This document shows, in pieces, positions 11,700 through 41,330 of a stretch of DNA of 64,000 bases. Source of the DNA: Botryllus schlosseri (taxonomy: Eukaryota). Location: the NCBI GenBank assembly GCA_051294905.1, contig CM119371.1:10418001-10482000 (forward strand), in the 5' to 3' direction. The position numbers and the translations under genes were made by a program. How positions within the stretch are numbered: the stretch's first letter is position 1; each line of letters opens with the position of its first letter. Under the pieces are notes generated by a model, which saw only the letters and a program-made list of their open reading frames with translations, was not told where the DNA came from and searched no databases.

Positions 11700-11769
11700 T
11701 TGTTTGTATTCATATATGCCATTTGAAACCTATACCCCACCAGTTCATTTTCTGCTACAGCCCAAGCCC

Positions 11770-12085
11770 TAGGGTTACCATACGTCCTCTTTTAAAAGGA
11801 TATCTCCTCTTTTTTGACTTTCTTGAAAGTGGCATCGGAGGACGCCCAAATGTCCTCTTCTCATGAAATTTTGTCCTCTTTTTTTGAGAATTTTGTTTAA
11901 ATATAGGGTGAAGGTCAAGTGAGATACAGTAAATCAGCACTGAAGTAACGCTCCGGCGACTATTGCGGTAACTGAGCCTGAAAGATGACCTTTTACCATC
12001 TTTTCAGAATTTTCCTCCGGCATTACAAGTCTGAAAATTTTGAAAAAGTGTCTTCTTTTCAGATTTCCAAAATATGTTAACCCTA
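11770..12085. mobile_element. MITE, TAGGGTTACCAT family with AAAAGAGGAC motifs
   Basis: TIR TAGGGTTACCATA / ATGTTAACCCTA; homologous to ~50120-50483, ~51585-51945 and 54602-54973. Confidence 0.7.
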
Positions 12086-12212
12086 CTATACCCGTTTCTA
12101 CATCTGACATTGAGCAGGGATGGCAAGTTCTGAAATGAATAGTAATTCTTGCAATTTTGGGCGACCGTGCAAAATACATGACATATCATTCTAACGTTAA
12201 TTATTGGGGATT

Positions 12213-15857: not shown

Positions 15858-17809
15858 GCTCTGTCCGTTCTTACATTTGTAGGCCTACATATGTCGTAAG
15901 GGGGAGTTGACAAGCTTAAGGCTGACTACCCAGATTTCGGATGAAGTCATTGAGGCATCATCTTTTGGAACGGCACAATGAGAATCTGATGTTGTTTGAC
16001 TTACCTGGAAAATTATTCCGACCCTCAAACATTGTACGTAGACATACATATTTATAACATTGCGGAAAAGTTGTGCTGTTATTGGCCGGGTCACTTCAGA
16101 GATTCGTGTTAAAACTTGACTTATATCGAACCTTCAACTACAGGTCGTGTTCACCAGAACTATATAGCCTTTCAGTGGTTCGCGCCATGCTCATTAGTCA
16201 GTGCTCCGTTCAGAATATCTCAAGGATATCTAGAACTGGGACATCTATCACCATATCGAGAAATCATTCACCGCTAATAGGATCAGTCATGTATCGCTAT
16301 TAAAAACATACTGGACTGCAATTTTACGATTTCGATTCATGTAAATGGCTCGTCTATGCACATCAGCTATAAACGGTGGTTACTAGCAGGTAATGTGCGT
16401 CTAGACTGGGGTGATTACTTTATGACTGTAATCGATTGCGATTACGGTTCCTTCTGAATGACGCGATTACGATTACGATTACAACAAAACCAGGAGGTAG
16501 TCGATTACGATTACATTAGAAAAGTAATCACGATTACTCACGATTACATTTATTTTGCTTCTTAGAACTAATTTTACAAGAAATATTGGAAGGCAATATA
16601 AATATTGCTATGAAAGGGCCTAATGAGATAACAACTTACCGTATAAATGATGCGTCGTTTGCTTGTTACGTCATAATGTACCCATTGCCCAACTTTAATG
16701 TAGGGGCGAATTATCGCACCCAATGATTTGCATTCTTTCCAGGTCCGTACCTGCCGCAGCCTAAACTCCCCAATAGGGTGGGGAACAAACTCGGTGGAGA
16801 CTCAAAAGTATTTCGAAAACCAACATATATTATAGACTATTTGCGAGAGATTTACTTGCCTTGAAAATTTTCTTCGAGCTCTGCGATTTAAATGTCGCTA
16901 GATAGTTTGATTTTGAAATGCATAGGCCTCCCCCTCAAGAAAAAAAGTATCCATGATTTATAGGAATAGGGATTTAGGTGCCGGTCATTACCGTGCCACG
17001 ACACACCAAAAGACATATGCAGTTTCGGTCAACATGCGACTCCACGAAGTGGACTACTAAAGAAAGACCTTGGCCGAAACTTTGGGTATGTGTCCATTGT
17101 CAATAGCAGCGTTGGGTAGGCGTGACTAATAGTCCTGTCCTTCCGATCGAAGCGCACAATACAAATGCCACCCGAGGCACCAACAGAGCAATAAAGACAT
17201 GAAAATTTGAGTGTGCGTCTTATAAAAGTTTCTCTTTTAGTCTGCTACGTTTGGGCGACTACAACTACAATATATTATGATTATATAACAGACCGATGGT
17301 CACGAGTTAACAACATACCATACAGTATAACAACATACTGTAAAGTAATTATAACAACATAACCAGGTGTTATAACTATGAATTAGGCCTACTTGCCCCC
17401 AGCTCTACTTGTAAATGGGACCATTGGGGGCGGGGAGAGGATTAAAATGAATAGCAATATAATGCATTATCAGTATTATTACCGAAATTCAGTCTTCAAG
17501 TTGGAAATTGACCGCCCTGGGGGCCCAAGATCAACTTTTGGAATGGGAGACGTATTGCTGTTTTGGTGCTGATTCTAGCTACAACCCTCGATTAGCGAGG
17601 CTCGCTAACGTGGTTTATAAGCGGATGGCTATGGCAGAAGGTCCAAATGTTGAGTAGAGAATTGCGAAACATACAATTGGCGCCCGTTTCAAGTGGAGTC
17701 TTATCAGAATAAGATAAAGTTAACATAAAATTCTGCCTTCCACTTAATACAGATACTGCACGCTGCTGTTACGAGAAGAGTCAAAGAAAGGTTCGGTTAT
17801 GATATAGAT

Positions 17810-19272: not shown

Positions 19273-19466
19273 CAATGTTCCTTCTAAGCTGCGCACGTGC
19301 GCAAATGCGCAGTGCTGACACAGTCTTTGCGCACAGAAAATCTAAGTTGCGCACAAAAAATACGAAGTGATGACCTTTATTTTAGTCGTTACGCACTGTT
19401 GTCCAAGTTCCTGCGCAGTAAGTTGGTGAGTGTGCGCAGACTCTTCAAAAATTAGAGGGAACATTG
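19273..19466. mobile_element. MITE, CAATGTTCCCTCTAA family
   Basis: TIR CAATGTTCC.TCTAA / TTAGAGGGAACATTG; other copies at 1-138, ~51255-51330 and 54071-54250. Confidence 0.7.
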
Positions 19467-19664
19467 GTATTAGTCCTTGTACAAATAAAAAGTAATCGTT
19501 CTTTCACAAAGAAATCGATTAAATATGTGAAATAGTCGATTACGATTACGGTTACTTCGTAGTTTTTTAGAATGTAATCGATTGCGATTACGATTAGTTC
19601 AAAATGCTGTAATCGTCGTAATCGATTACGATTACCCCATGTATGTGTGCGTCCCCCTCTAAGC

Positions 19665-20911
19665 CAGAGGCGGGCAACTTCTCCAGCCGGCGGGCCAGAT
19701 ACAGAAAAATTAGGTAGGACTACTTGGCGGGCCGGATTGCTGAATCGATTTCTTCACCCATTTATCCACATATACACGGAATAAATCGTATTAATGAATG
19801 CATTTTAACGACAGCAATGTCATTTCAAAGCCATTTCTCGCCGATAATGATGAGGACAATGTGGATTTGAAAACATCAGTATTGTCATACAGGCGCCGCC
19901 ATGTCTGCTTCTCTCTGATCAATTAACACAAGGTGCAATCATAGTGTCCTATAGTGACCGGCTTGGCGAGCGCGAAATTTAATAAAACTGGTATCAATCG
20001 ACAGCTACCTTGGCACTGATTGCAAAAATATAAATTTTATTCTGCTCGTGGCCCTGGAACCCCCCAAAACAGCCTGGAATATGCATTGTAACCGAGTTTG
20101 GTATTGTGACGCAACCATGACTTCTGGGAGCAAGTGAGAATCAGCGCAAACCAAAAACGTTTTGCCATTGTTGCGCAACCGATTGAGCATTCACACTGTC
20201 ACTCTCGTGCGCACTTGCTTCTGATCTGCTCAGACGGTATGGTTGCGTCACAATACCAAATTCCGTTACAATGCAACATTCCAGGTCGATTTTGTTTCGG
20301 GGGGGGGGGGGGGTTCCAGGGCCACGAGCAGAATAAAATTTTGACTTTCGCAATCAGTACCGCGGTAGCTTTCAATTGATACCAGTTTCATCAAATTTAA
20401 TGCTCGGCAATCCGGTCAAAAATTACCGTCAAACTGCCTTTAGCTAAAGGAAGGTGTGACGTAACCCTCTTTCACTGAGCCGCGAGAGTTGCTTGTGTCC
20501 ACACCATATAGGACACTATGATGCAATCCTTAATTAGGATTTCACGGCGTTCGATAAGGCCAGTCCACAAATTTACCAAGATATCTATTTATTAGGGTTG
20601 GGTACATGGTAAATGCCGATGATGCAAGTCTTCTCGCTTCGACAGACTTACTCGTAAGCTCTACTCTCGCACGCTGCGTACACACACACGTATATAATGA
20701 CATACAATCAGGGATATCTAAAACTTTTTTATAGATTTTTAGATATCCCTGCATACAATCACTAAAATTTAACGTTTAAGCAAGTAGTGGGGAATCTCAG
20801 CAGACTGCGGCCGCAGGTCAAATTACCATGTAACGAGAAACTGTCCGCGGGTCGGACAAAATCCCGTCGTGGGCCGGATCCGGCCCGCGGGCCGTATGTT
20901 GCCCGCCCCTG
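19665..20911. mobile_element. Non-autonomous hAT element
   Basis: TIR CAGAGGCGGGCAAC / GTTGCCCGCCCCTG; perfect TSD ctctaagc. Confidence 0.8.
19940..20520. mobile_element. Foldback MITE with CATAG termini (P-element-like), nested
   Basis: TIR CATAGTGTCCTATA / TATAGGACACTATG; long internal inverted arms; 7-bp TSD gtgcaat/atgcaat; partial homolog at ~38030-38270. Confidence 0.7.
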
Positions 20912-21199
20912 CTCTAAGCCTATTGAATCGCATACAGTCCATCGACATTCCTCCGATGACTAAAAGCTTTGTAGATAATAATAAATGCATTGTGTTAAAA
21001 ATGCCGTCCTCTAAGTAGACCGCAGCAAATTTTAAATAGTTTCATGTTCAACCAACGTGTCGAAAAAAATAAATACAAATGTTGTGCCGCGTCTCTTAAG
21101 TTCTATAGTGCCTGAGAAAGAAAGTGTAAGTGCAAAAAAGACAAAAATGCAGAACAAATGTATTAGGTAAATAAAAGATCGATTGCCGTCTCGAATTTG

Positions 21200-21400
21200 A
21201 ACTTTTCGAACTTTCGGCGGAGTAAAATCAGCGATTTTATCCTCAAAATCAATTTTTAGAACGTAGTCTCTTTTTATAGAAAGAATCGGTGTAGCTGATA
21301 GCCGATCATCATTCATGATAAAAGGTAAATACGACTTTATCATTTTTAGCTTTAAGAAACTCCTCCTACAGTTCGCAATTGAAACACCACCCGTAAGATG
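21200..21400 (-). pseudogene. hAT transposase C-terminal dimerisation fragment
   Basis: VSIANCRRSFLKLKMIKSYLPFIMNDDRLSATPILSI...IDFEDKIADF resembles the ERSFSKLKLIK.YLRSTM...RL..L..LSIE motif. Confidence 0.65.
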
Positions 21401-22154
21401 AAGTTTCATGCACATTGCACAAGCATAAATACGGTGTCTAATCGAGTATGGCTGTGATTTAACAAACCAATGTAAAACATCAAACACGGTTGCATTGCCA
21501 TCAAATGTAGTTTCACGTCTTCGCACCAGCTTCTCAAATCTGCCAACCTTTCTAACGCGTGCATCATGTTGTCGAAAACAACCACCGATTCGAGTCTGGA
21601 CCGTAACAAATAAGCTCCTGATTACCCGTCTCTCCGTGCTGTGTGTACTGTGCAGCCTTATTTGCCGCCCCTTGCAGCCTGCCACCTCTGGCGCAGAGCC
21701 AGAATCGCCAAGTGGTTGCTACGCCACTGCTGATTTCTCGTTTCGACGTATGGTACATTTGCTGTTGATGCCATAAATGTCTACGTATGTAAATTCTTGA
21801 TTGTCTTGCCTCTTCCATGAAATGATGAGATTGTCTAATAACAAACCATTATTCAACGTACGTATACAGACGGCTATGCTGGTGGATTTTATGATGGCTT
21901 AACCGTGCTTTTCAACCTTTTTGAGCTCTATTCGCACCTTTTTTTAATGAACTCATTCGCACAAATCCACTGAAAATTGCTACAAAAAAGAAGATGGAGA
22001 TACTTAACAATATTTTGTTCAGATGTGCAACAGTGTCTCATTGAAAAGGAAACTCTCTTCCCTCGTTTTGATTTCAACTCTTTCAATAAAACCCTTCTAG
22101 GTCAAACAAGTTGTTGAGAACGTCTATTAGTATTTGTGTTTGGATGGCCATGTC

Positions 22155-23917
22155 CTAAATACTCTTCTGCAATCCTATCTGAAATAGGCCTACAACGTAT
22201 TTTCCGCGAGTGATATCCCAAAGTAAGCAGCTGTCCTGCTCGTCTGTCAGTTCCTTCCTGCGAAAATAGAGCGGTCGATATTCTGGAGATAAGCCGCTAG
22301 CGGGCCAATCATTAATCGCATAGTAATTTACACGACATGACAGCGGGTCTCGGCGCGTCTCAAAACCAATCCTTTTCGATGTTATTGGCATATTGTTTAC
22401 TTGTATTGCATTTCTCTTGTTGGCTTCATGCGTTGATGGATCCACATCGGCTGATGCATTCGAGGGACTTCCGGAAAGCCAATCCGCAGTAACATTCCGC
22501 TTACCCGGTTTGTAACGTATTTCGTAATTATAACCCGCGAGTTTGATTGCCAAACATTGCAACCTGGATGCGGCTAGCACGGGTATACCAATCTTTGGAC
22601 CTGGAATCAATGCCAAGGGTTGGTGGTCCGTACATAGGGTAAACCTCCTCACGCACAAGTAATGATGAAATCTCTGTAACCCGAATATTATGGCCAGAGC
22701 TTTTTTCTCGATGTGGGAATAGTTTTTCTCGGCTGCTGACAATGTATGAGACGCGTACGAGAATGGGCGCTCAGTCGCTCACGTTCTCCATCGCGTTGCA
22801 TGATTACTGCTCCTAAACCAGAGGCGCGTCTACTGACATCGTAATCGGTTTATCAGGGCCATAGTGAGCCAATACCAAATCGGAGGTAAGGCAATGTTTC
22901 GAGACTCCGAAGGCCTTTTCACAAGCATCATTCCACTTCCACTTCACATTCTTTCTTATCAAGTTCGTTAACGGTTGCAACAGACTGGATGGGATCGGTA
23001 TAAATTTTTTATGGACATTTACCAGCCCGAGAAAAGACCGCAGCACACTTACGTTGTTTGCGCGGCAAGCGGAAGTCACTGATCGCAAATTTGAGTTGCT
23101 CGGTCGTATGCCATTCCGGGGACTCTTCCAGGAAACAACACTTGGACTTTTCAGCTTTCAAACCATATTTATCCAAACGATTACACACAGTTATTAACAG
23201 CTCAAGATTTCCCTTCTCCGAAGACCCTGTGATTAAGATGTCGTCCAGTAAACACGTGAATTCAGTCCTCGCAGCACCTGATCCATCAATTGCTGAAAAA
23301 TCGTCGGCGCTGATGCCACTCCAAACGGAAGTCAGGTGTTTGTTTGTTTTGAGGTACTCGTGACATTTGTCGACTACTATGGTCGTTTACACCAGGCCCA
23401 TATTCTTCACAGCCTATGTAAACCTCTAACACTTAGGTATAGGACTCGAACCCGAAAACCCATTGGTGTTGCAGCCGCGGATTATGCCACTGCGCTATCT
23501 CGCCGGGTCGGAAGTCGGGTGTATCTGAACAATCCGAGATGGGTGTTGATCACCACGTAATTATGCGCGTCGTCATCAAGCTCCGCTTGCGTGTACGCTT
23601 GTGATGAATCGATCTTGCTGAAATACGAACTTTTCCTTCCGTTGCGAAGCACCAGTAAGTCGTCTGGGGTCGGTAATGATATTCGGGTGTATCCAATTGC
23701 GGATTGATCGTAAACTTAAAGTCGCCGCAAATACGAACTTCATCGGACGCCGGTATAGAACAGGCACAATTGGACTTGCCCAGTCGGAGTGCTCAACCAA
23801 TTCCAACACACCAGTATCCACTAACATACGCTCAAACAGTTAATCTTGTATCCGGTCCTACCCTTGCGCCTTGTACATTTTCCGGGGCACATCTTCCTTA
23901 TGTGTCTAACCTGTCTG
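22155..23917 (-). pseudogene. Decayed Gypsy (Ty3/Gypsy, Mag-like) pol: RT and RNase H
   Basis: Motifs HSDWASPIVPV, LRSFLGLVN, WKWNDACEKAF, LAHY, AEKNYSHIEKKALAIIFG and FTLCTDHQPL, with multiple frameshifts. Confidence 0.85.
23340..23509 (-). mobile_element. tRNA-derived SINE inserted in Gypsy RT
   Basis: Head GGCGAGATAGCGCAGTGG...GGTTCGAGTCC (A and B boxes); (AAAC)n tail; TSD ggaagtc(a/g)ggtgt. Confidence 0.75.
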
Positions 23918-23944
23918 CACGCAAGTAGTTAGTATGATCGGTCG

Positions 23945-24460
23945 TGGTGTGCCATTGTCTCTTATGGGCGGGGTGGTGAGGTGCCTGAAAACCGGGGGTG
24001 GTGAGGTGACCCTTATCTCTTATGGCGGGGGTGGTGAGGTGCCATTGTGTCTTATGGCGGGGGTGGTGAGGTGACCCTTATCTCTTATGGCGGGGGTGGT
24101 GAGGTGCCTGAAAACCGGGGGTGGTGAGGTGACCCTTATCTCTTATGGCGGGGGTGGTGAGGTGCCATGTGTTTTTATGGATGCGGTGATGATGGTACCC
24201 GTTCAGACCCCCTATCGCTCGTGATGTGCCAATGGTTCTTATGGGATCTCTGGTGATGTGTCATTGTTTCTTACGCGGTCTCTGGTGATGTGCGATTGGT
24301 TCTTATGGGATCTCTGGTGATGTGCCATTGTTTCTTATGGTATCTCTGGTGACGGCACCCTTTCGGGTATAGGCTACGTCGGTGATGTGTCTGTCATGTA
24401 TTCTTACGGGATCTGTGGTGATTCACCATGTGTTCTTATGGGTGCGGTCGTGATTCGCAC
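23945..24460 (+). repeat. Subterminal G-rich tandem array (mirrored at ~37093-37608)
   Basis: 7 copies of GGGGTGGTGAGGTG in ~25/33-bp units, then ~32-bp TCTTATGGGATCTCTGGTGATGTG-type units. Confidence 0.9.
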
Positions 24461-27400
24461 TTTCAACCATCTCTCGCGCGGTGTTGAATAGTCACCAACA
24501 ATAACCGCACAAACGGAAACGTGGCTTGTTGTGAGGATTAAGCAGTGCGACCTATATTCCGAATGACCTGCGCGGGGAAACTCGTGTTGGCATGCGGCTC
24601 TTATGTCTTATGGGTGCGTTGGCATGCGGCTAGCGTTATTCTTATGGACGCGGCGGTGATTCGTACTTTCGGGTATAGACTGCGGGTGGCATGTCGTACT
24701 TTTAGCAAAAAACGGTGTGGAATAGTTTACAAAATCTTAGAATCACTCGCAGAATTATATTTTGGTAATTATTTTGTCACAGAGCCGGCGTAGACGGCGA
24801 TTCCAATACCAACAATAACCGTGCACACAAACTAACACTTCAAAAAGGGTGTGAAATATTTGTAAAATGCTACGATCACTCACAAGATAATGTCCCAGAC
24901 ATAACCATCATTCGTGACTTGATGTTACATACATACCAATCGCTCACAAGGTAATATTTTGATAGTTTGGTACGGAACTTGATTTCACTCGTAAGATTTA
25001 TTAAGTAACGAATAACAGACCACCAGTGTCGGTAACTTGAATAGCGACAAATTGTCACTTATTTCCGCTCTAACCCTAATCCTTTGTGAAGTGAACGCTT
25101 ATTCAAAAGGGTGTGATATAATTTTAAAATCCAACGACTACTCACCGGATAATGCTTCAGACATATAGCAATCCCTCATACCCGCTCACAAGGTAATATT
25201 TCGGTAATAAGTTTGTCACAGAACCGTCGCAGGCGGTGATTCGAAAACCAACAATTTGTCACTCGCCCGCGATCGCTATATGTTTCACGCCTCCAGAATA
25301 GTGGCTGACTTTAGTTGCGTGATAAGATCCATGAAAATATTCAATCAATGTGTTAGTTTATCAACTTGAAATGAAACTCACTACACAAATCAAGTCGATT
25401 CGTATCTGAATGTTTTAAATCGGTACAACTCTAATCCTTTGACAAATCCCTTAACGCGTTTTTGTTGAATCGAACGTAACCCGAATATATTATTCGCACA
25501 TTCCGCGCCACTGTTTTCACACTTATAGAATCAATACCAACTATAACTCTACAAGAATCAAGAATCACAAGTATGTGCATTACACAGTTATTGTCTTTAT
25601 TAACTTGAAATCAAACACTTAACAAAAACACGCAACTAATCATTTGGCAACTCTAGCATTACCAAAAAATTCCAGTATTGTTGATTGAAAATCCTTGAGT
25701 CATTATCATCAAAAATGTTATAGTACCGCATCGGAATCCATTCGCGGGATGTACTAAAAGTAAATCCAGATAATCCAAAATGAAATATTTGGACTTTGAC
25801 AAACATGACTACTAACTTTGATCCAGTCACATTTCAAGATTATACTTTGAAACAATCCTTGAAACTTACAACTCTATTCACGACTGAGTTTTCCGTTTAT
25901 CAAATAGAGTTTCAGTAAATACTATCGCGATATTTTAATGTGTTACTACACACAATAGAATCATTCAATGAAATAGCACCTGTTGTAAATATTTCTAACT
26001 TGACAACCACTTGTGCATACCGCGATCGACTTGTGACGCGATGAGTTAAATCGGAATATTTCAATCTATTTGTCGAAACCTTGAACAAGCTATCGGGTTA
26101 TTTTTTGTTGCAATCGAGTGAACGGAAATAGTATTACGTCTCAACATTTTAACATCTTCCCATACACAAAAGAGTAAAATACAAAAAAAACCTTGTCAAG
26201 TCAATCGGTTTGTAACTTACCCAACCAAAGCAAAAAGTATCCTTATGAAAAGTAGACAAGACTACGCGAGTAATCACCACAATCCAAAATCCATAGCAAG
26301 TTCGGTTGTATTCATAGTCCACCAACTCGTATTTTTATTCAACTGTAAAAGTCGTTACTATTCCGCAAGACAAAGAAATTACTATGTGGTATATTTTGTA
26401 AGACAAAAGTAATTACTTCTCGGTGTCGGCGACTTGAGATTAACATATGTTTTGAGTATATGATATTTGAATGTCTGACCAACGTAGTTAAGAATTCATT
26501 TTATACTATCGAACACCGGTATTACATTGAAAGTTATCATGATGTAAACATAAGGATTGACACATGGATTTGACATATGTAATAGTTGATCATGACTTGA
26601 TTATTAAATTATTCGCGTTAATTAGACCCGGTGTTGCGGTAAGGGTTATTATGACAGCAACAAACTTTTCACCACCGTGGTTATTAACATATTGATTTGT
26701 AAAACTATACTTGTCTGAAATGTTCTTGGTTTGAAAGATATTCCGTGTTGGTACAAATCACTCTGTGTATTACGGATATCAGAAAATATTTTTACAAATG
26801 TAGTTGTTTCCAGTAACCAAGACTAAAGATGACACAACAATTTCGTTTGGAATATCTTTACTGGACGCATCCTATTCTACTAGACTTGAGTAATACACAA
26901 AACTCATAGCATTAACAAAATCACAATAGGCGCTACACTGAAATCTACAAAATGTGTTTGTATTGTTAATCAAAGTAGTGATCATAAATTATCATTTAAA
27001 TAAGTAATTGTAATCATAAAACCAAACTTGTGAAAGTCATTACCATAACAAAAGAATATTGTAGGTTGCTTGCTAAATGTATGCCGGAAATATTTGTAGA
27101 ACGCTCACGACCAAAGAAATCGGAAATTTCTCCCCATTGTCATTCGTCAAAGTATATGTTGTCACAATACTCAACCCGTAAAAGATCTTACTTGTATGTG
27201 ATTGAATCGCCGGTAATTAACTCACTAAATCAAACCATAAGGAAATTTCACTCAGTCATCGGATTATGATATTAAACAGCGTCGCTTAATCGGTGTAGAG
27301 CGTTTTTCTAAATGCAAATCATACCTGACCGACAGAAAACAATTTTCACTCACCTTGTAATGAAACCAAGTGGTGGGCCTTCGTTCAATATTTTGTTTGT

Positions 27401-28904
27401 GTCAAATACTTTGCAATAAACACACACACTGGAGTGGTTGAGCTTTACATCATCAAGCTGTCATCTGTAAATCGAGATCACATCCGACTTGTAACTGCAT
27501 CGTTTACCTAACCGAGTTGTATGCACATTGCACAGTTTCATATTTTTATCATTTAGTGATTGCTGAACATACCAAACGATACACATTCACTTCCGAAATA
27601 CTGCGTTGATCTCAATTCCCTTTATCGTGATAACCGAAGTACATTTGTTTCGAATTCGTAACAGCCGACTTTTCTATGACACGATAAATTTTGACAAGTT
27701 ATGCTTAGAAGATTGGTTGCATATCACGAAAAATAACATACTGCTCATATTGATACTGTTAATCGGTATTTTCACGCGAGTCGATTTTCAAATGAGTAAA
27801 ATTTATTACATGAGTTTCTCCGCTTAATGTAAATGAAAACTCAGTCGTCTTTTAACATCACAAAGACATTGATAAAAAGTAAGCAATCAAACACAACACT
27901 TTGTACGACACTAATTATTGTTCCACACATCTCATTTCATACTAAGTGTATACGAAAGATATTCATGTTACACGAAAGTATCCGCTCATGCTACAAACCT
28001 GTACAATGATTGGTGGTGTAAGTCCAGCACAATTGTGGTATCCATACGAGTTTAGTTAACACAATTTACGACACCGAGGTCGCCTCATCCTTCGTAAGAC
28101 AACAAACCAAGGCTTCAGGATATGTCCATGGCATAACAATAAATCAGCTACTCCAACAACAGAGTACATATGTTTTCTAGCACGGTGCTTACATCTTACA
28201 CACAAATCAACCTACTTTGCTAACGAAAAGTGCTGAGTCATCACATGGTTGTCCTCACAACAATACAACACATGGTTGTCCTCACAACAATACAACTAAA
28301 ACATACTATCATACAAAATGGCCGTTATAGTTTGCACACCAACGATACATCGTACAAGTAGCAAGTCTCGAGAATCCAGTTATTCAAAAAAACGTGAAAG
28401 TGTTTCTACGCCAAGTCGGTATGTTGACGAAAGCATATATTGTAATATCATGATCGATTTACATTCGTTGGTCACAAAATGTCACTACTCTAAAAAATTA
28501 TTTTTCACTCAAAGTCTACTTGTCACCATTCGTTTCATCAAGCACGAGTTCAAGAAACCTGCTACGGCATGAATTGTTATTTTTATGTTGTGTAAATAGG
28601 TAATAATTAATTTTAGTAACACTATATCAACATCATCGAGTTGCGCGAATAGATTTACATGTGGTCTTGTGGTTTTAATCGAAGTATACAGCACGGTCTA
28701 ATGTAGAGTCATCTCTACTGTACAGCAACTCGGTAATCGAAATGTATTAAAATTTAAACAACGATCTTGTTTCGTCGCACCAAAAATATGTTTACTATCG
28801 CGATACTCTGCACAGGCCGTGTAAATCCTTTTCACACTCGTAATAGTATGCCAACAGCTACCGGCGACAACGTTTAACAATACCAACGACACTAAACATA
28901 CGAT

Positions 28905-29480
28905 ACCTACCCAAGTAAAATTACCATTTTCACCAGGAGGTCGGTCGTTACCCGAGTAGAAATACCATCGTCCTTTGAAGATTTATCGTTTACCCAGTGT
29001 AACAAACCCCTTTTCCTTTGGAAATCTATTTTTTCTCTGGGTAACAAACCTTTTTCACTTGGAAATATATTTTTTCTCTGGTTAACAAACCTTTTTCACT
29101 TGGAAATATATTTTTTCTCTGGGTAACAAACCTTTTTCACTTGGAAATATATTTTTTCTCTGGGTAACAAACCTTTTTCACTTGGAAAGATATTTTTTCC
29201 CCGGGTAACAAACCTTTTTCCCTGAGCAACAAACCATTTTCACTTGGTGGTCCGTCGTTTACCCGAGTAAAAATATCCTTTTCTTTTGGAGATCCGGCGT
29301 TTACCCAGTGTAACAATACATTTTCACTTGGAAAAATACTTTTACCTAGAGTAACTAATCATTTTCTCCTGGGTAACAAACCCTTTTCGTCTGGAAACTA
29401 TCATTTACCTGAGTACCAATACAGTTTTCACTTGGAAATCTACCTTCTCCCTGGGTAACAATATCATTTTCGTTTTGAAA
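28905..29480 (+). repeat. 41/42-bp minisatellite (mirrored at ~31890-32420)
   Basis: Unit CTCTGGGTAACAAACCTTTTTCACTTGGAAATATATTTTTT; left arm has one more unit than the right. Confidence 0.9.
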
Positions 29481-31173
29481 ACTGACAACCACACCGGCCA
29501 ATTTGATAGTTTTGTATATTGTTACAACGGGCAGTGACAAAATATACACCAACAACGACTCCGATACATTTGTCTAATCAAATATTCACTTGCTCTGATG
29601 CATCCCATCAAAATCATTGGTTACTCACATACAATAACAATGAGCTGTTGTACATCGACATGTATGTTTTCGAATTGGCGAATAAAGGGGTTTCCGATAT
29701 GTTCGTGATGTCCGGTTTCGTGCTTTGGATTTTCCAGAGTCAAAATGTCTGAATAAAACACCTCCTCGACTTTGGTAGCTGGTTGATACACGGATAATGA
29801 ATTTATGTTCCCAATCGCGCTAACAACTCCGGATTACTTGTGAGTTTCCTCAGGTCTGTTTACTATTTTGTGTCTTTACTGATCAATACATGTCGCTCCA
29901 GTCAGCTGAAACCGGATCACTAATATGAGAAAGTGTGTGGGGGCCTGATCCGGATATTCACTCATGAACCAACGACCAATATTCAAGTAAACATGCTACA
30001 GACCGTGTTTTGTCTCCATGAAAAATACCAATGCATACACCATCACATACAAGTAACGTCACGATTGTTCACAAGTATTCGCGTAAACGAGGTATACATA
30101 CAATGTGTCGGTGTACAAACATCATGGTAAACAAATTCAAGTTCTCAAGTCTCATCATGCGACGACTCTGTACATTCAATGTGGGCATAGATGACTTGGA
30201 GACAGGCAAGCAGCCATATTTGGACGTAACACGGTCTTAGTTTGAACCGACCTCCACCCAACTTGTGAAAAATCAATCTCACACGAGTACAACGCTTTCA
30301 CGGATTCACACCTTGATTTTGTAAGATTGTTCGGATTCTCAGGTAGACTTGTATCGTGATACAGACTTCGACATAATCGGGTTGCGTAACTCGCTCAATC
30401 CCACCACGTATTGTTCGTCCTAACCTGCGAACTTTTTTGCTGAGACCACAGTGTTTCACCCGGCGTAATGTATTTGGCGATCACCATCGTTATCAATCTT
30501 TCACGCGATGAATATGTCAGATGTCGCTACTCCCACATAACGACTACAGATAAAAATCGTGAGCAGTGACTCCGGATTGAAATCGTAAACAGGGACTCTG
30601 TGCGTGTGTGTGAATCTCGAGTTCGATTACGATTAGATAATGTAATCCAAGGTGTGTCTCTGCGAGTTGAAGGCTTATTTCATGTTAATCACACCGCAAG
30701 AGGGTGCTATCTCGTAATTCTACAGGTCGTTATAAAACACGATTGGAAACTTTTGGTCTAGTCGATCCAGCTACGTATTGAAACGGTGCACCCACACAGA
30801 CCATTGAGAAAACATCGTCGTAACCTAACCATATCCACGAGTAAATATGGGACTACGCGTAACTGTCCATAGATTCCTCTGGCCCCACGCCGTGGTTTTA
30901 CGTCACAGACAAAATGCGGCAGTGGAAATATTAAAAATGAAAAACGATACCTTGGTGACATTTGATTTGGATTTTACACCTGATGAACCATACACTCGAT
31001 TGGTACATTGGGAGGAAAACTCTATCGTCAAGGTTGAGGGAAAAGAAATGTACAGATTTGTTGTTGTTGTGGATATTCAGCGAAAATCAGGGTATATGAT
31101 TGTGTATGGTTCGCATATTTGACTGAGAATATATCAACATGCATGTTGCGCTGTCAATTGTATCATGCCGTGT

Positions 31174-34100
31174 GTCATCTATGCCCACATTGAATGTACA
31201 GAGTCGTCGCATGATGAGACTTGAGAACTTGAATTTGTTTACCATGATGTTTGTACACCGACACATTGTATGTATACCTCGTTTACGCGAATACTTGTGA
31301 ACAATCGTGACGTTACTTGTATGTGATGGTGTATGCATTGGTATTTTTCATGGAGACAAAACACGGTCTGTAGCATGTTTACTTGAATATTGGTCGTTGG
31401 TTCATGAGTGAATATCCGGATCAGGCCCCCACACACTTTCTCATATTAGTGATCCGGTTTCAGCTGACTGGAGCGACATGTATTGATCAGTAAAGACACA
31501 AAATAGTAAACAGACCTGAGGAAACTCACAAGTAACCCGGAGTTGTTAGCGCGATTGGGAACATAAATTCATTATCCGTGTATCAACCAGCTACCAAAGT
31601 CGAGGAGGTGTTTTATTCAGACATTTTGACTCTGGAAAATCCAAAGCACGAAACCGGACATCACGAACATATCGGAAACCCCTTTATTCGCCAATTCGAA
31701 AACATACATGTCGATGTACAACAGCTCATTGTTATTGTATGTGAGTAACCAATGATTTTGATGGGATGCATCAGAGCAAGTGAATATTTGATTAGACAAA
31801 TGTATCGGAGTCGTTGTTGGTGTATATTTTGTCACTGCCCGTTGTAACAATATACAAAACTATCAAATTGGCCGGTGTGGTTGTCAGTTTTCAAAACGAA
31901 AATGATATTGTTACCCAGGGAGAAGGTAGATTTCCAAGTGAAAACTGTATTGGTACTCAGGTAAATGATAGTTTCCAGACGAAAAGGGTTTGTTACCCAG
32001 GAGAAAATGATTAGTTACTCTAGGTAAAAGTATTTTTCCAAGTGAAAATGTATTGTTACACTGGGTAAACGCCGGATCTCCAAAAGAAAAGGATATTTTT
32101 ACTCGGGTAAACGACGGACCACCAAGTGAAAATGGTTTGTTGCTCAGGGAAAAAGGTTTGTTACCCGGGGAAAAAATATCTTTCCAAGTGAAAAAGGTTT
32201 GTTACCCAGAGAAAAAATATATTTCCAAGTGAAAAAGGTTTGTTACCCAGAGAAAAAATATATTTCCAAGTGAAAAAGGTTTGTTACCCAGAGAAAAAAT
32301 AGATTTCCAAAGGAAAAGGGGTTTGTTACACTGGGTAAACGATAAATCTTCAAAGGACGATGGTATTTCTACTCGGGTAACGACCGACCTCCAGGTGAAA
32401 ATGGTAATTTTACTTGGGTAGGTATCGTATGTTTAGTGTCGTTGGTATTGTTAAACGTTGTCGCCGGTAGCTGTTGGCATACTATTACGAGTGTGAAAAG
32501 GATTTACACGGCCTGTGCAGAGTATCGCGATAGTAAACATATTTTTGGTGCGACGAAACAAGATCGTTGTTTAAATTTTAATACATTTCGATTACCGAGT
32601 TGCTGTACAGTAGAGATGACTCTACATTAGACCGTGCTGTATACTTCGATTAAAACCACAAGACCACATGTAAATCTATTCGCGCAACTCGATGATGTTG
32701 ATATAGTGTTACTAAAATTAATTATTACCTATTTACACAACATAAAAATAACAATTCATGCCGTAGCAGGTTTCTTGAACTCGTGCTTGATGAAACGAAT
32801 GGTGACAAGTAGACTTTGAGTGAAAAATAATTTTTTAGAGTAGTGACATTTTGTGACCAACGAATGTAAATCGATCATGATATTACAATATATGCTTTCG
32901 TCAACATACCGACTTGGCGTAGAAACACTTTCACGTTTTTTTGAATAACTGGATTCTCGAGACTTGCTACTTGTACGATGTATCGTTGGTGTGCAAACTA
33001 TAACGGCCATTTTGTATGATAGTATGTTTTAGTTGTATTGTTGTGAGGACAACCATGTGTTGTATTGTTGTGAGGACAACCATGTGATGACTCAGCACTT
33101 TTCGTTAGCAAAGTAGGTTGATTTGTGTGTAAGATGTAAGCACCGTGCTAGAAAACATATGTACTCTGTTGTTGGAGTAGCTGATTTATTGTTATGCCAT
33201 GGACATATCCTGAAGCCTTGGTTTGTTGTCTTACGAAGGATGAGGCGACCTCGGTGTCGTAAATTGTGTTAACTAAACTCGTATGGATACCACAATTGTG
33301 CTGGACTTACACCACCAATCATTGTACAGGTTTGTAGCATGAGCGGATACTTTCGTGTAACATGAATATCTTTCGTATACACTTAGTATGAAATGAGATG
33401 TGTGGAACAATAATTAGTGTCGTACAAAGTGTTGTGTTTGATTGCTTACTTTTTATCAATGTCTTTGTGATGTTAAAAGACGACTGAGTTTTCATTTACA
33501 TTAAGCGGAGAAACTCATGTAATAAATTTTACTCATTTGAAAATCGACTCGCGTGAAAATACCGATTAACAGTATCAATATGAGCAGTATGTTATTTTTC
33601 GTGATATGCAACCAATCTTCTAAGCATAACTTGTCAAAATTTATCGTGTCATAGAAAAGTCGGCTGTTACGAATTCGAAACAAATGTACTTCGGTTATCA
33701 CGATAAAGGGAATTGAGATCAACGCAGTATTTCGGAAGTGAATGTGTATCGTTTGGTATGTTCAGCAATCACTAAATGATAAAAATATGAAACTGTGCAA
33801 TGTGCATACAACTCGGTTAGGTAAACGATGCAGTTACAAGTCGGATGTGATCTCGATTTACAGATGACAGCTTGATGATGTAAAGCTCAACCACTCCAGT
33901 GTGTGTGTTTATTGCAAAGTATTTGACACAAACAAAATATTGAACGAAGGCCCACCACTTGGTTTCATTACAAGGTGAGTGAAAATTGTTTTCTGTCGGT
34001 CAGGTATGATTTGCATTTAGAAAAACGCTCTACACCGATTAAGCGACGCTGTTTAATATCATAATCCGATGACTGAGTGAAATTTCCTTATGGTTTGATT

Positions 34101-37100
34101 TAGTGAGTTAATTACCGGCGATTCAATCACATACAAGTAAGATCTTTTACGGGTTGAGTATTGTGACAACATATACTTTGACGAATGACAATGGGGAGAA
34201 ATTTCCGATTTCTTTGGTCGTGAGCGTTCTACAAATATTTCCGGCATACATTTAGCAAGCAACCTACAATATTATTTTGTTATGGTAATGACTTTCACAA
34301 GTTTGGTTTTATGATTACAATTACTTATTTAAATGATAATTTATGATCACTACTTTGATTAACAATACAAACACATTTTGTAGATTTCAGTGTAGCGCCT
34401 ATTGTGATTTTGTTAATGCTATGAGTTTTGTGTATTACTCAAGTCTAGTAGAATAGGATGCGTCCAGTAAAGATATTCCAAACGAAATTGTTGTGTCATC
34501 TTTAGTCTTGGTTACTGGAAACAACTACATTTGTAAAAATATTTTCTGATATCCGTAATACACAGAGTGATTTGTACCAACACGGAATATCTTTCAAACC
34601 AAGAACATTTCAGACAAGTATAGTTTTACAAATCAATATGTTAATAACCACGGTGGTGAAAAGTTTGTTGCTGTCATAATAACCCTTACCGCAACACCGG
34701 GTCTAATTAACGCGAATAATTTAATAATCAAGTCATGATCAACTATTACATATGTCAAATCCATGTGTCAATCCTTATGTTTACAGCATGATAACTTTCA
34801 ATGTAATACCGGTGTTCGATAGTATAAAATGAATTCTTAACTACGTTGGTCAGACATTCAAATATCATATACTCAATACATATGTTAATCTCAAGTCGCC
34901 GACACCGAGAAGTAATTACTTTTGTCTTACAAAATATCCCACATAGTAATTTCTTTGTCTTGCGGAATAGTAACGACTTTTACAGTTGAATAAAAATACG
35001 AGTTGGTGGACTATGAATACAACCGAACTTGCTATGGATTTTGGATTGTGGTGATTACTCGCGTAGTCTTGTCTACTTTTCATAAGGATACTTTTTGCTT
35101 TGGTTGGGTAAGTTACAAACCGATTGACTTGACAAGGTTTTTTTTGTATTTTACTCTTTTGTGTATGGGAAGATGTTAAAATGTTGAGACGTAATACTAT
35201 TTCCGTTCACTCGATTGCAACAAAAAATAACCCGATAGCTTGTTCAAGGTTTCGACAAATAGATTGAAATATTCCGATTTAACTCATCGCGTCACAAGTC
35301 GATCGCGGTATGCACAAGTGGTTGTCAAGTTAGAAATATTTGCAACAGTTGCTATTTCATTGAATGATTCTATTGTGTGTAGTAACACATTAAAATATCG
35401 CGATAGTATTTACTGAAACTCTATTTGATAAACGGAAAACTCAGTCGTGAATAGAGTTGTAAGTTTCAAGGATTGTTTCAAAGTATAATCTTGAAATGTG
35501 ACTGGATCAAAGTTAGTAGTCATGTTTGTCAAAGTCCAAATATTTCATTTTGGATTATCTGGATTTACTTTTAGTACATCCCGCGAATGGATTCCGATGC
35601 GGTACTATAACATTTTTGATGATAATGACTCAAGGATTTTCAATCAACAATACTGGAATTTTTTGGTAATGCTAGAGTTGCCAAATGATTAGTTGCGTGT
35701 TTTTGTTAAGTGTTTGATTTCAAGTTAATAAAGACAATAACTGTGTAATGCACATACTTGTGATTCTTGATTCTTGTAGAGTTATAGTTGGTATTGATTC
35801 TATAAGTGTGAAAACAGTGGCGCGGAATGTGCGAATAATATATTCGGGTTACGTTCGATTCAACAAAAACGCGTTAAGGGATTTGTCAAAGGATTAGAGT
35901 TGTACCGATTTAAAACATTCAGATACGAATCGACTTGATTTGTGTAGTGAGTTTCATTTCAAGTTGATAAACTAACACATTGATTGAATATTTTCATGGA
36001 TCTTATCACGCAACTAAAGTCAGCCACTATTCTGGAGGCGTGAAACATATAGCGATCGCGGGCGAGTGACAAATTGTTGGTTTTCGAATCACCGCCTGCG
36101 ACGGTTCTGTGACAAACTTATTACCGAAATATTACCTTGTGAGCGGGTATGAGGGATTGCTATATGTCTGAAGCATTATCCGGTGAGTGGTCGTTGGATT
36201 TTAAAATTATATCACACCCTTTTGAATAAGCGTTCACTTCACAAAGGATTAGGGTTAGAGCGGAAATAAGTGACAATTTGTCGCTATTCAAGTTACCGAC
36301 ACTGGTGGTCTGTTATTCGTTACTTAATAAATCTTACGAGTGAAATCAAGTTCCGTACCAAACTATCAAAATATTACCTTGTGAGCGATTGGTATGTATG
36401 TAACATCAAGTCACGAATGATGGTTATGTCTGGGACATTATCTTGTGAGTGATCGTAGCATTTTACAAATATTTCACACCCTTTTTGAAGTGTTAGTTTG
36501 TGTGCACGGTTATTGTTGGTATTGGAATCGCCGTCTACGCCGGTTCTGTGACAAAATAATTACCAAAATATAATTATGCGAGTGATGCTTACGAATATTT
36601 CACCGCGTGAGCGATTGATATGTCTGTAACACCAAGTCGCGAAAGATGGTTATGTCCGAGACATTATCTTGTTAGCGATCGTGGGATTTTACAATTATTT
36701 CACACCTATTTGAAGTGTTAGTTTGTGTACACGGTTATTGTTGGTATTGGAATCGCCGTCTACGCCGGCTCTGTGACAAAATAATTACCAAAATATAATT
36801 CTGCGAGTGATTCTAAGATTTTGTAAACTATTCCACACCGTTTTTTGCTAAAAGTACGACATGCCACCCGCAGTCTATACCCGAAAGTACGAATCACCGC
36901 CGCGTCCATAAGAATAACGCTAGCCGCATGCCAACGCACCCATAAGACATAAGAGCCGCATGCCAACACGAGTTTCCCCGCGCAGGTCATTCGGAATATA
37001 GGTCGCACTGCTTAATCCTCACAACAAGCCACGTTTCCGTTTGTGCGGTTATTGTTGGTGACTATTCAACACCGCGCGAGAGATGGTTGAAAGTGCGAAT

Positions 37101-37629
37101 CACGACCGCACCCATAAGAACACATGGTGAATCACCACAGATCCCGTAAGAATACATGACAGACACATCACCGACGTAGCCTATACCCGAAAGGGTGCCG
37201 TCACCAGAGATACCATAAGAAACAATGGCACATCACCAGAGATCCCATAAGAACCAATCGCACATCACCAGAGACCGCGTAAGACACAATGACACATCAC
37301 CAGAGATCCCATAAGAACCATTGGCACATCACGAGCGATAGGGGGTCTGAACGGGTACCATCATCACCGCATCCATAAAAACACATGGCACCTCACCACC
37401 CCCGCCATAAGAGATAAGGGTCACCTCACCACCCCCGGTTTTCAGGCACCTCACCACCCCCGCCATAAGAGATAAGGGTCACCTCACCACCCCCGCCATA
37501 AGACACAATGGCACCTCACCACCCCCGCCATAAGAGATAAGGGTCACCTCACCACCCCCGGTTTTCAGGCACCTCACCACCCCGCCCATAAGAGACAATG
37601 GCACACCACGACCGATCATACTAACTACT
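31174..37629 (-). repeat. Right inverted arm (6456 bp)
   Basis: Mirror-coordinate sums 61369, 61328 and 61553 shift by exactly 41 and 225 bp; 6272-41+225=6456. Confidence 0.97.
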
Positions 37630-38557
37630 CACGCATGACACAGCGCTATTTGAAAAATACAATTGTGTTCTCCGTGGTTAGATATACCGCAGCGCAGTCA
37701 CCCGCTGTTCCCTTCGTACCATCACGGTGCTGTAACTACCACTATCGAAAAGTTGTCTTCCCGCTGCTTCTATTGCGACAGCCTTTTAAACGGCGTCTTA
37801 TAAGCTCAAATCTTTCTCCAACAGTAAGTACTCTTGGATAGGTCTCGAGCGCAAACCTCAGATGAGTGGATCCCGAATTACTTGAGTTAAGAATTGCCCC
37901 GCTCGCGATGTTCCGACAATTTCTTTAGAAGGCAATAATTCGATTTAACAATCCTGTCTAGCAAAACGAGGGTGTAGCCAAGAAGAAAGAATCAGACAGA
38001 AGTGTCTCGATCTCAATGCAAAATTCGGGGCTGATTTTTTTTGGGGGAGGGGGAGGGGGTTTCCAGGACCATGAGCAGAAGAAAATTTATATTTTCGTAA
38101 TCAGTACAGCAGCAGCTTTCTATTGATACCCGTTTTAGCGAATTTAGCGTTCGGCAAGCCAGTCAAACATTGGCCGTACAGCTGCCATTGGCCAAATGGA
38201 AAGTATGACGTAACCCAAATGCAGAGAGCCGTTCAATCTCGCTGTGTCCACATCATATAGTACACTATGTTTCAACATCTCCGCAGCCATGGGAACAGTT
38301 CTAGCATCCTCTGGATGCGAGCACACCTGGTTAAGAAACACTGGCCCAGAGAATCACCATATACATTAAAAAATAAGAGCAATAAAATCACAACATATTT
38401 TTATCCTGACTCGTGCCTGACCTGCTGAGATAATATCGACTACTCGCCGAAGTATAGGCACAGGCATCAATTTCCACTCATGCACCGCCTATATAGTAAT
38501 ATAGTCAAGTTGGATAAAACAATAATTGCCAAATCGAGGCCCATATACTGTAAAATA

Positions 38558-39979
38558 TTACACTTGTTTAGGATCTTGTAAATATGACCAAAGAAACAGA
38601 ATAGCCATAAGGAAGCAGAGCAAAAAGGGCATCGGAAACAAGACACCGAATGCGGAGCTAAAATTGTCCATCAATGCACGTACGCAAGCTGTGCTAAATG
38701 TCAAGAACACAACTCCACCTCCCGTCAAAATGCTATACGATTTCAATCGAATGGAACTAGGCATGTTGGCAGTAATTCCCGATCCGCGGTGTTTCAGACA
38801 GATCATCAACGCAGAACGAGTGGATGTTAACGTCAGATACGACACATAAACACCAGCGATGTTGTTATAATGGAAGCTAGCTACTGAAGCAGTGAAGGCG
38901 ATGATCAACAGTGAAGAAACGCAAATTATTATCAGTCTCGGTTTGGAAAATTTATCAAGAATTTGACCTACTATAGGTCCCACAGCAGTCGCCGTTACGA
39001 TACCAATGATAATCAGCAACCCAACAAATTGATCATTTAAATAGGGAAATTGTTTCAAAATCAAAGAAGATATAAGGGTGGCGCCGTACGCTCTGTCGGT
39101 CATCGCGAAAGAGTACAGGATAAAAAATATCGCGTATGGGCGATAAGTGAATAAACATGCGACGTCTTTCAGCTCCCTTATCAGGCTGTAGGTCTTTGTC
39201 TGCAGTAAAGGCGGTTTTTCGTTTGGTTCTGGATCATTAAGTAGTTCGCCATTTTCACAAACAGGCGGCTTGTCAGACACAAAGCATATTACTAAAACAC
39301 AACAAAATAAGGACATTACCGACAATGAGCCGAATGTCGCAGCGAAAACAATCCTAAATCTGCTATCAATATTATCGGAAGTCGTTGAGAATGTCGATAT
39401 TTGCTGAAGCTCTTGATGGCTATACGAAATCCCCATTGCTCTTGTAGCAACCAAATTAGACATCAAAGATGCTAGCCGCCTTGTAACAGATGACATTGCT
39501 GACGCCTTTCCTCTTTCATGCAAAGGAAACCAATTCACTGACACTAGCTGTGCTATCGGTATTATAATTCCGGCAGCGGAACCGGATAGAAACATCCCAG
39601 CACATACCAGTGGGAATATTCTTAACAAAACTCCCATTGTAACCAGTACTGTGGCGAATCCGTTCAAGACGCAGGCTAGCAGAGTGATTTGCCGAAGGGT
39701 GATCCAACCACCGATCACGCAAATCACTACAACGCTAGCCAGTCTACCGACGAGATTGGCGATTGCCTGTAAGTCCGTTATGGCTGGATTGATTCCGAAA
39801 TATCCCGATGTAATATCGTTGACATATGAGAATGATCCGAAGCCGAAGACATCCAATACGGTGATGAAACACACTATGACTGAAATGCCCCATCTTTTCC
39901 ACACGACGCGGTGCCTTCTCCCCTCCAACGGGAACGTTTTGTTGGTTTCTGAATCACAACCACTGTCATCTGACTTCAT
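38558..39979 (-). CDS. Intronless MFS transporter, SLC49/FLVCR/DIRC2-like (paralog 2), ~473 aa
   Basis: Collinear with and highly similar to the 1049-2473 protein; first ATG (MKSDDSG) at 39979; flanks are also homologous. Confidence 0.85.
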   Translation of the reverse strand: MKSDDSGCDSETNKTFPLEGRRHRVVWKRWGISVIVCFITVLDVFGFGSFSYVNDITSGYFGINPAITDLQAIANLVGRLASVVVICVIGGWITLRQITLLACVLNGFATVLVTMGVLLRIFPLVCAGMFLSGSAAGIIIPIAQLVSVNWFPLHERGKASAMSSVTRRLASLMSNLVATRAMGISYSHQELQQISTFSTTSDNIDSRFRIVFAATFGSLSVMSLFCCVLVICFVSDKPPVCENGELLNDPEPNEKPPLLQTKTYSLIRELKDVACLFTYRPYAIFFILYSFAMTDRAYGATLISSLILKQFPYLNDQFVGLLIIIGIVTATAVGPIVGQILDKFSKPRLIIICVSSLLIIAFTASVASFHYNNIAGVYVSYLTLTSTRSALMICLKHRGSGITANMPSSIRLKSYSILTGGGVVFLTFSTACVRALMDNFSSAFGVLFPMPFLLCFLMAILFLWSYLQDPKQV

Positions 39980-41330
39980 GGCACAGACAGTCGACGCGAT
40001 GTCAGTCACTCGATTCAGGTTCAGAGAATCTTCCGCAACGGCAAATCAATGCACGTACCTGTACCAAGCTACGCAACGATGACTTGAGCAATGAGCACGA
40101 GTACGATCATTCGTGCCGAAACGGAAGGAAATATAGAGAGCATACGCTATGAATGGGCTATTGATTGCTGTGAAATTGGCCTATGATAGCGTAGCGATGA
40201 GCGTCAGTGCCATCTGATGAAATTCAGAATCTACAGTTCTACACCGTTCTACCTGCGGCTTGAGATTTTTATTCCTTACACTGGACAAACACCAGTCCAA
40301 CACACACAGCAGAGTATATAACAGCGGACCTGTTCATAGCAGTGATGAGCATCGGAGCGGAGTCGGAGTGTATCCGGAGCGAAGTTTTGCCAATTTTGTG
40401 ATACTCGGAGTGGAGTCGGAGTTTACTACAGATATTTTTCCGGAGTTTTCCGGAGTGTTGTAGGTTTTGCCCCTGATATCTTTCGATAGCTCTGACCAGA
40501 AGACACTATTGATTACAGACCAAAACACAGACAGTTGACACCTTGTAAAATTGTAATATGACGGGTAACATGCAAAATTGATTGCCAAGTGCATAAAAAT
40601 CAGCCACCTGCACTGCAATTGGGGACTGGAGAGTAACCTAGTGATCTAGCAAGGCATTTTCGGCGAGCAGTGTCTGTAGTTCACAAAATTGAAGGCACCC
40701 AATATCATTCGCAGCAGACATGGGGTGATTACTTCATGAATGTAATCGATTGCGATTACGATTACTTCTGAATGACGCGATTACGATTACGATTACAGCA
40801 AAATCAGGAAGTAGTCGATCACGATTACGATTTCATTGGAAAAGTAATCACGATTACTCACGATTACATTTATTTTGCATCTTAGAAGTTCTATTGGAAG
40901 ACAATATATGGATTGCGCTGAAAAGGCCTAATGAGAACAACTTTCTTTAAAAAAGAAGCGACATTTGCTTGTTACGTCATAAAGTACCCATTGCTCATTT
41001 TATATTGGACGATTTATCGCACCCAACGATTTGCATTCTTGCCAGGTCCACAACTGCCGAACCCCAAATTTCCTAATAGGGTGGGATCGAGCTCGAAGTG
41101 GACTCGGTAGTATTTCGTAAACCAACACAAATTATAGACTATTTTCGAGAGATTTCATGAACTTGAAAATTGTCTACGAGCATCGCGATTTAAATGTCTC
41201 TAGATAGCTTGATTTTGAAATACATAGCCTACGTCTGTCGATCTCCTCCTCAAGAAAAAAAGCATGCATAATTTATAATAACAGGCATTTAGGCGCCAGT
41301 CACTACCGCGCCACGACACACCAAGAGACA

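Follow-up and report, generated by a model that had tools for sequence, protein, structure and literature searches.

A palindromic 13.7-kb insertion with Maverick/Polinton-type ends in Botryllus schlosseri DNA

Here, we describe a 13,706-bp insertion occupying positions 23924-37629 of a 64,000-nucleotide stretch of Botryllus schlosseri DNA (GenBank assembly GCA_051294905.1, contig CM119371.1, positions 10,418,001 to 10,482,000 of the forward strand), the whole of which is called the window below. The element is a real insertion: two near-perfect inverted arms enclose a short unique centre, both extremities carry an end motif known from Maverick/Polinton elements, and a 6-bp target-site duplication (TSD) brackets the entire unit. 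It carries none of the Maverick genes, it is present in a high number of copies, and its centre bears a small open reading frame (ORF) that is conserved among them. Strictly speaking, the element is no Polinton, and the name that suits it best is a non-autonomous element with Maverick-type ends and foldback architecture. On balance, and with limited confidence, we favour the view that this foldback-type element with ends of the Maverick/Polinton kind was moved in trans by an integrase of the Maverick type.

Results

Structure of the insertion and of its ends

An earlier note on this DNA, drawn from the sequence alone, had proposed two near-perfect inverted arms of ~6.3-6.5 kb around a 978-bp unique centre, with ~93% of the element consisting of terminal inverted repeats (TIRs). 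An inverted-repeat search and an alignment of the arms gave back the same coordinates, and sequence analysis confirmed the existence of the insertion. The search returned three paired blocks, 23924-24848/36705-37629 (925 nt), 24739-29182/32146-36589 (4444 nt) and 29046-30195/31174-32323 (1150 nt), which are 99-100% complementary as rounded by the tool. The arms, delimited by global alignment (Table 1), account for 92.9% of the element. Over ~6231 aligned bases they differ by 10 mismatches, that is a substitution divergence of ~0.16%, and by two indels in tandem repeats: a 225-bp extra copy in the right arm (36544-36768) and, at 29076-29116 in the left arm, a supplementary 41-bp repeat unit.

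The element starts with AGTAGTTAGTATG at 23924 and finishes with CATACTAACTACT at 37629. Both the AGTAGT...ACTACT ends and the exact 6-bp CACGCA duplication, which the same note had pointed out, are found in the sequence. The match stops there, the next bases outward being different (G/T on one side and A/T on the opposite one), so that the TSD has a length of exactly 6 bp; by arithmetic, the chance of finding any particular 6-mer again at a set position is 1/4096. The 26-nt terminal sequence has two sites in the window, namely the two element ends, compared with none in 100 shuffles. The two ends being identical and the TSD enclosing the palindrome in its entirety, the palindromic molecule presumably predates integration instead of having formed in place.

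The conserved ends of Mavericks are 5'-(AGT)2 or (AG)3 ... (ACT)2 or (CT)3-3', and among vertebrate Mavericks the commonest motif is 5'-(AGT)2//(ACT)2-3' with perfect 6-bp TSDs (PMC8097293). The ends and the TSD of the element equal this commonest vertebrate signature, which makes the link with Polinton/Maverick termini stronger than first noted.

The other eukaryotic superfamilies with TSDs of this size, two in number, were considered and ruled out. The IS3EU/GingerRoot elements (6-bp TSD) have TA..TA and rarely TG..CA ends (PMC10045372), whereas those described here are AG..CT. The Dada elements (6-7-bp TSD) are devoid of TIRs and reside only in small-RNA genes such as those for tRNA or snRNA (PMC3706591), whereas the present TIRs are long and the site shows no Rfam or tRNA match.

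The element lies in a degraded Ty3/gypsy-type fragment (22158-23386, minus strand) with RVT_1 and RT_RNaseH matches and many stops. Its reading frames are too heavily broken for continuity across the insertion site to be read, and the family scan did not accept a read-through translation.

Table 1. Features of the insertion, in window coordinates
Feature	Position	Strand	Description
Left TSD copy	23918..23923	.	CACGCA
Left end motif	23924..23929	+	AGTAGT = (AGT)2; same as the Maverick end motif in PMC8097293
Left arm	23924..30195	+	6272 bp, non-coding, GC 0.38
Left subterminal array	23938..24456, looser units to ~24670	+	~32-bp units (CTTAYGG ... GGTGGTGAGGTG / CTCTGGTGATGTG), GC 0.53
Internal tandem repeats, left arm	28999..29471	+	41/21/42-bp repeats, 5.4 copies of the 41-mer
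Central region	30196..31173	.	unique, 978 bp, GC 0.43
91-aa ORF	30847..31122	+	orphan; MGLRVTV...GSHI; ATG context A at -3 and G at +4
Right arm	31174..37629	-	6456 bp, reverse complement of the left arm
Internal tandem repeats, right arm	31889-32329		mirror of the left internal array, 4.4 copies
225-bp unit	36381..36811	.	1.9 copies, right arm only; larger of the two arm indels
Right subterminal array	37097..37615	-	mirror of 23938-24456
Right end motif	37624..37629	+	ACTACT = (ACT)2
Right TSD copy	37630..37635	.	CACGCA

Repeat composition of the arms

Each arm comprises two zones of distinct composition. The outer ~530 bp are GC-rich (0.53) and built of ~32-bp units with the cores CTTAYGG and GGTGGTGAGGTG or CTCTGGTGATGTG. 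The sequence GGGGGTGGTGAGGTG, exact or near-exact, occupies seven sites at each element end and is found nowhere else in the 64 kb, while 12 of the 16 plus-strand occurrences of CTTAYGG in the whole window fall within 23924-24700. The inner ~5.7 kb are AT-rich (GC 0.37), with 41/21-bp tandem arrays toward the inner end, and no internal inverted repeats were found within this part.

Coding content

In the left arm and the centre, none of the 67 stop-to-stop ORFs of at least 45 aa reached the Pfam cut-off (best E = 0.018); Pfam may be without models for some Maverick capsids. No Rfam match (E up to 0.1) was obtained in 21000-40500 and no tRNA across the window. The longest ORF of the element has 97 aa, a length equalled in 149 of 200 shuffles. 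Since there are no Pfam, Rfam or tRNA matches and the ORFs are short, the element has no gene for pPolB, integrase, ATPase, protease or capsid. Nor was any rve integrase found in the rest of the window, where 116 ORFs of at least 75 aa were scanned. The absence of pPolB, integrase, ATPase and capsid genes, already asserted in the earlier note, thus holds in the Pfam scan. Its description of the element as gene-less is right as far as Maverick genes are concerned but has to be amended for the centre, with its 91-aa ORF conserved among copies.

Abundance and diversity of the family

Contigs of three public DNA runs (X1, X5 and X9, the latter under a second organism label) and raw reads of one RNA run (X23) were mapped, at a likeness of at least 85%, to positions 21900-31260 (left flank, left arm and centre). 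From X1 alone, 162,605 contigs were mapped, 44,776 of them at least 99% alike. In the flank bins (22213-23151), summed depth was 240-472 in X1, 650-800 in X5 and 2-3 in X9. It rose to 31k, 55k and 100, respectively, in the subterminal bin 24091-24403 and to 114k-396k, 84k-762k and 108-2787 in the arm interior (24404-30037), and amounted to ~32k, ~31k and ~125 in the centre (30351-30976). Single locus-like flank contigs had a depth of ~11 in X1 and ~53 in X5. The arm, the subterminal arrays and the centre are therefore all multi-copy, under two organism labels, and hundreds of distinct family variants are present at each position. The family numbers roughly 10^3-10^4 arm equivalents, which is an order of magnitude, as summed depth is not itself a copy number. 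Read depth thus shows the element to be one member of a very abundant family and not a copy-back product standing alone.

The arm:centre depth ratio is ~6-10, compared with the 2:1 expected if all copies were such palindromes; therefore most arm-like copies have a different centre or none. At position 25139, the T of the left arm is private: C accounts for 166,218 of the 166,576 family depth in X1 and is also the base of the right arm. Judging from this site, the arms diverged after their duplication.

Some contigs of X5 and X9 show joints within the subterminal arrays (e.g., 24062 to 24640). These were considered as a proof of linkage between end and interior in other copies and discounted, their sides being only 31-38 nt long and lying inside repeated units. 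Of the sequencing runs listed in a search with sampled words, none is recorded as RNA; six very small ones (15-135 million letters) contain 0.23-0.30 of these words and were left out of consideration.

With ~6% of the RNA run sampled, 548 reads were mapped, 539 of which fit only partly; arm depth was 0-4.2 per bin, in both orientations. The main landing place of RNA reads is a high-copy zone of the left flank, 23152-23777. Loose contig ends at 23458 and 23504 with tRNA-like letters suggest that this zone may be a short interspersed nuclear element.

The small ORF of the centre

The 91-aa ORF is the ATG-started part of the 97-aa frame. A protein collection yielded five relatives, which form two clusters with identities of 90% and 73%. 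Four of them have 91 aa and the fifth 98 aa, owing to a 7-residue N-terminal extension, and the end position is identical in all. Since the collection contains called ORFs only, the intactness of these relatives is subject to ascertainment bias, which counts against a real protein. As a single control, an ATG-started 84-aa ORF of the arm had no relatives in the same collection, though the arm depth is ~10 times that of the centre. In a neutral simulation run 2000 times to 25 amino-acid differences, the ORF stayed intact in 189 runs, and only 4 of these 189 equalled the conservativeness of the observed changes (mean BLOSUM62 score 0.20, versus -0.45 +/- 0.32). The copy in the window has one private change, a T at 31064 giving Val-73, where the family contigs and the database proteins carry Gly.

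Several further results count against a real protein. No homolog outside its own cluster was detected among 1.84 billion representatives, and there was no Pfam, PHROG or PDB match. Atlas gave no usable match, with a low recognition (1729), and the AlphaFold model is poor, with a mean predicted local distance difference test score of 43.6. Collectively, these data make a real gene quite possible, with the balance tipping slightly the other way.

Genomic surroundings

Two MFS-transporter ORFs without introns, 496 and 495 aa in length and both on the minus strand (1052-2539 and 38561-40045), lie ~37.5 kb apart. With the MFS gene neighbouring the element, Atlas returned only generic MFS clusters, and a protein search gave two hits at 58-61% identity. 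They belong to a diverged segmental duplication with 84-86% DNA identity, and the foldback element is located between its copies. Further blocks of this duplication match 16.4-19.6 kb to 40.7-44.1 kb, and short repeat arrays of the CGATTACGATTAC type are found in both copies (16502-16581, 19543-19635, 40822-40901 and 44012-44104).

The window contains other repeated sequences. An element resembling a miniature inverted-repeat transposable element, at ~7697-8281, is ~585 bp long, with inverted arms of ~220 bp that are 85% complementary, ends of the form (C/T)ATAGATTACTAAC and, on its flanks, a repeat (GTCAATC) at least 7 bp in length; it has no relation to the foldback element. A second small inverted-repeat element (19955-20418) has 111-nt arms, 86% complementary, with a run of 14 G beside one arm. 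At 13399-13881 (minus strand), a reverse-transcriptase fragment of another retroelement matches RVT_1 (E = 4.5e-16). Finally, the regions 50140-54975, 11769-12086 and 19273-19468 are linked by several inverted or direct matches of 80-146 nt (83-92%) and look like copies of a scattered short-repeat family.

Discussion

Evidence weighing against a Maverick-type element

Several observations speak against mobilisation by Maverick-type functions, or leave the structure less firmly anchored. The 6.3-kb arms are 4-5 times longer than the longest reported Maverick TIR (1447 bp in PMC8097293, with ~2 kb in a butterfly preprint, bioRxiv 10.1101/2025.02.07.637071). Vertebrate Maverick TIRs measure 46-1447 bp, with a mean of 402 bp, and intact vertebrate Mavericks 12.7-24.6 kb (PMC8097293). 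Thousands of family copies contrast with the usual low number of Mavericks, for instance fewer than 10 in Anolis (PMC3014272). In addition, the published end motif comes from vertebrate Mavericks and the host is probably not a vertebrate. Indeed, the CpG observed/expected ratio of the whole window is 1.05 at a GC of 0.405; since this shows no CpG depletion, which argues against a heavily methylated genome of the vertebrate type, a non-vertebrate host is probable. The 6-bp length of the TSD is known from one copy only. As to the reads, the mapping extends from the left flank through the left arm to the centre; no contig among the 22 pieces listed out of ~110,000 bridges the junction between flank and end, and no read or contig among those listed spans the structure. 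Exact-match searches with a terminal 21-mer and an internal 27-mer returned no locus in metagenome contigs, and neither did a terminal 18-mer in viral contigs.

Alternative explanations

Alternatively, the element could be a cut-and-paste transposon of the foldback type from a different DDE superfamily, perhaps one not yet described, moved by the transposase of its own family, with the Maverick-like AGTAGT ends and the 6-bp TSD being coincidental. Very long, internally repetitive TIRs that fill a mostly non-coding element are the hallmark of elements of the Foldback and Galileo type. Subterminal arrays of transposase-binding repeats are typical for cut-and-paste families, and 10^3-10^4 copies are usual for non-autonomous elements of this kind and unusual for Mavericks. 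On the other hand, among the described superfamilies that were checked, none pairs a 6-bp TSD with AG...CT ends, and the exact (AGT)2//(ACT)2 hexamer has a prior of 1/4096 for a named hexamer. The Pfam scan also revealed no transposase remnant. We consider this explanation unlikely, though it deserves serious weight.

Another possibility is that the insertion acts as a hairpin-RNA locus: read-through of its 6.2-kb near-perfect inverted repeat would give long double-stranded RNA and small RNAs silencing the family, for which the maize Mu killer locus is an analogue. This would be a functional consequence, compatible with a Maverick-type origin. In its favour, 6.2 kb of the arms show 99.8% complementarity, the family is highly abundant, and low-level X23 reads (0-4.2 per bin) fall on both arm orientations; nevertheless, the 539 of 548 reads that fit only partly are not assignable to this copy, and their depth is very low. 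Such a role seems rather improbable.

The interior could also be an assembly artefact, where the ends and the insertion are real and the palindrome was made or distorted by foldback-chimeric long reads or by a mis-join among near-identical copies. Foldback artefacts are documented for long reads (PMC12870357), and a family with 44,776 of 162,605 X1 contigs at least 99% alike is prone to mis-assembly; the lack of a spanning read or contig mentioned above points in the same direction. However, the arms are not identical, with 10 substitutions and two length differences in tandem repeats, and at one of the differing sites the right arm retains the family majority base. Furthermore, unlike flanks and a perfect TSD surround the whole unit, whereas a foldback chimera would invert a flank too. 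An artefact is thus very unlikely.

Finally, 978 bp of host DNA enclosed by two full inverted copies of a shorter element, the whole mobilised by the outer ends, would give the same picture at low resolution, but such a composite can hardly be the case, with inner arm ends (30195 and 31174) devoid of ACTACT/AGTAGT and of a subterminal array, all 14 GGGGGTGGTGAGGTG sites at the outer ends, and a centre that is itself multi-copy and bears the family-conserved ORF.

A possible mechanism and origin

Returning to the view that a Maverick-type integrase moved the element, we infer a helper, roles for the repeats and an origin of the palindrome as follows. An autonomous Maverick residing in the host genome could supply the retroviral-like integrase that inserts the element in trans, with cuts staggered by 6 bp giving rise to the CACGCA duplication. 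The end reiteration of Mavericks permits "jumping back" in protein-primed replication (PMC8097293), and the (AGT)2 reiteration seen here is of the kind that would let a protein-primed polymerase do so at initiation; these ends would serve as origins if the helper pPolB also replicates the element. The ~15 subterminal ~32-bp units of each end are most likely binding sites for the mobilising proteins, either integrase or replication proteins.

The palindrome itself may stem from a copy-back strand switch during strand-displacement replication. Such a switch would yield a molecule of this form and raise a ~7-kb half-genome to a Maverick-like length. Alternatively, the long-TIR architecture could simply be normal for the family. 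A copy-back origin is plausible at this stage. A more ambitious proposal is that the family is a satellite in the true sense, or a defective-interfering lineage, of an endogenous Maverick virus, i.e., gene-poor copy-back palindromes that keep the replication and integration ends, have a packageable length of ~14 kb, carry the 91-aa gene in the loop and, with thousands of copies, outnumber their helper by orders of magnitude. To this proposal we give only a small chance.

Significance

Mavericks/Polintons are regarded as viruses that insert themselves in the manner of transposons, but there has been hardly any observation of how they replicate and move. From an abundant, recently active family in which nothing but the Maverick end signature is retained, one could learn which sequences in cis are enough for integration, and perhaps also for protein-primed replication. 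Such a family would supply hundreds of insertions for measuring the TSD and target choice, and nature would have provided a test of the influence of copy-back genomes and capsid size limits on such elements. Moreover, long perfect palindromes, when they belong to a high-copy family, could give rise to silencing RNA and make the genome unstable. If the satellite proposal were true, this would be the first described high-copy Maverick satellite and direct genomic evidence of protein-primed strand-displacement replication by Mavericks in animals.

Comparison with known systems

Repbase lists some non-autonomous Polinton entries. In a phrase search of the open literature, outside Repbase Reports and most subscription papers, gene-less Maverick-riding elements were almost absent, and PMC5499653 describes no such family. 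With IS3EU/GingerRoot and Dada, the likeness is restricted to the size of the TSD, 6 bp and, for Dada, 6-7 bp.

Foldback transposons (Drosophila FB, Galileo and Tetris) resemble the element by their very long, internally repetitive and mostly non-coding TIRs, their high copy number and the repeat arrays near their ends. FB and Galileo are members of the Mutator-like and P superfamilies, and their ends differ from those of the element. Their TSDs, of 9 bp in FB and 7 bp in Galileo, also contrast with the exactly 6 bp found here.

Palindromic derivatives are known for protein-primed linear replicons, namely incomplete adenovirus genomes, inverted dimers of undersized helper-dependent adenovirus vectors and the hairpin or palindromic forms of the yeast killer plasmid pGKL1. 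In these derivatives one end is duplicated in inverted orientation, so that the same origin is present at both ends and the size is restored toward a packageable length. They are, however, extrachromosomal laboratory or viral forms, whereas the element sits in the genome between two TSD copies, as one of a large genomic family.

Tlr1 of Tetrahymena has long TIRs and short tandem repeats near its ends. This Polinton relative is "sometimes" seen as a non-autonomous polinton (PMC5499653), but it codes for numerous proteins, among them integrase, ATPase, capsid proteins and a helicase (PMC4028283), none of which the element encodes.

Autonomous Mavericks/Polintons share with the element the (AGT)2//(ACT)2 ends, the perfect 6-bp TSD, the presence of TIRs and the size range, 13.7 kb falling within 12.7-24.6 kb (PMC8097293). 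In contrast, the element is devoid of their genes, its TIR is 6.3 kb long instead of 46-1447 bp and takes up 93% of its length, and its copies are counted in thousands, versus a handful to dozens. The nearest published cases are the butterfly polintons, which, according to the preprint (bioRxiv 10.1101/2025.02.07.637071), have unusually long, gene-bearing TIRs of ~2 kb and mobile polB-less derivatives. Their TIRs hold the hexon and adenain genes, and the other polinton genes are kept, whereas the arms of the present element are non-coding and three times longer.

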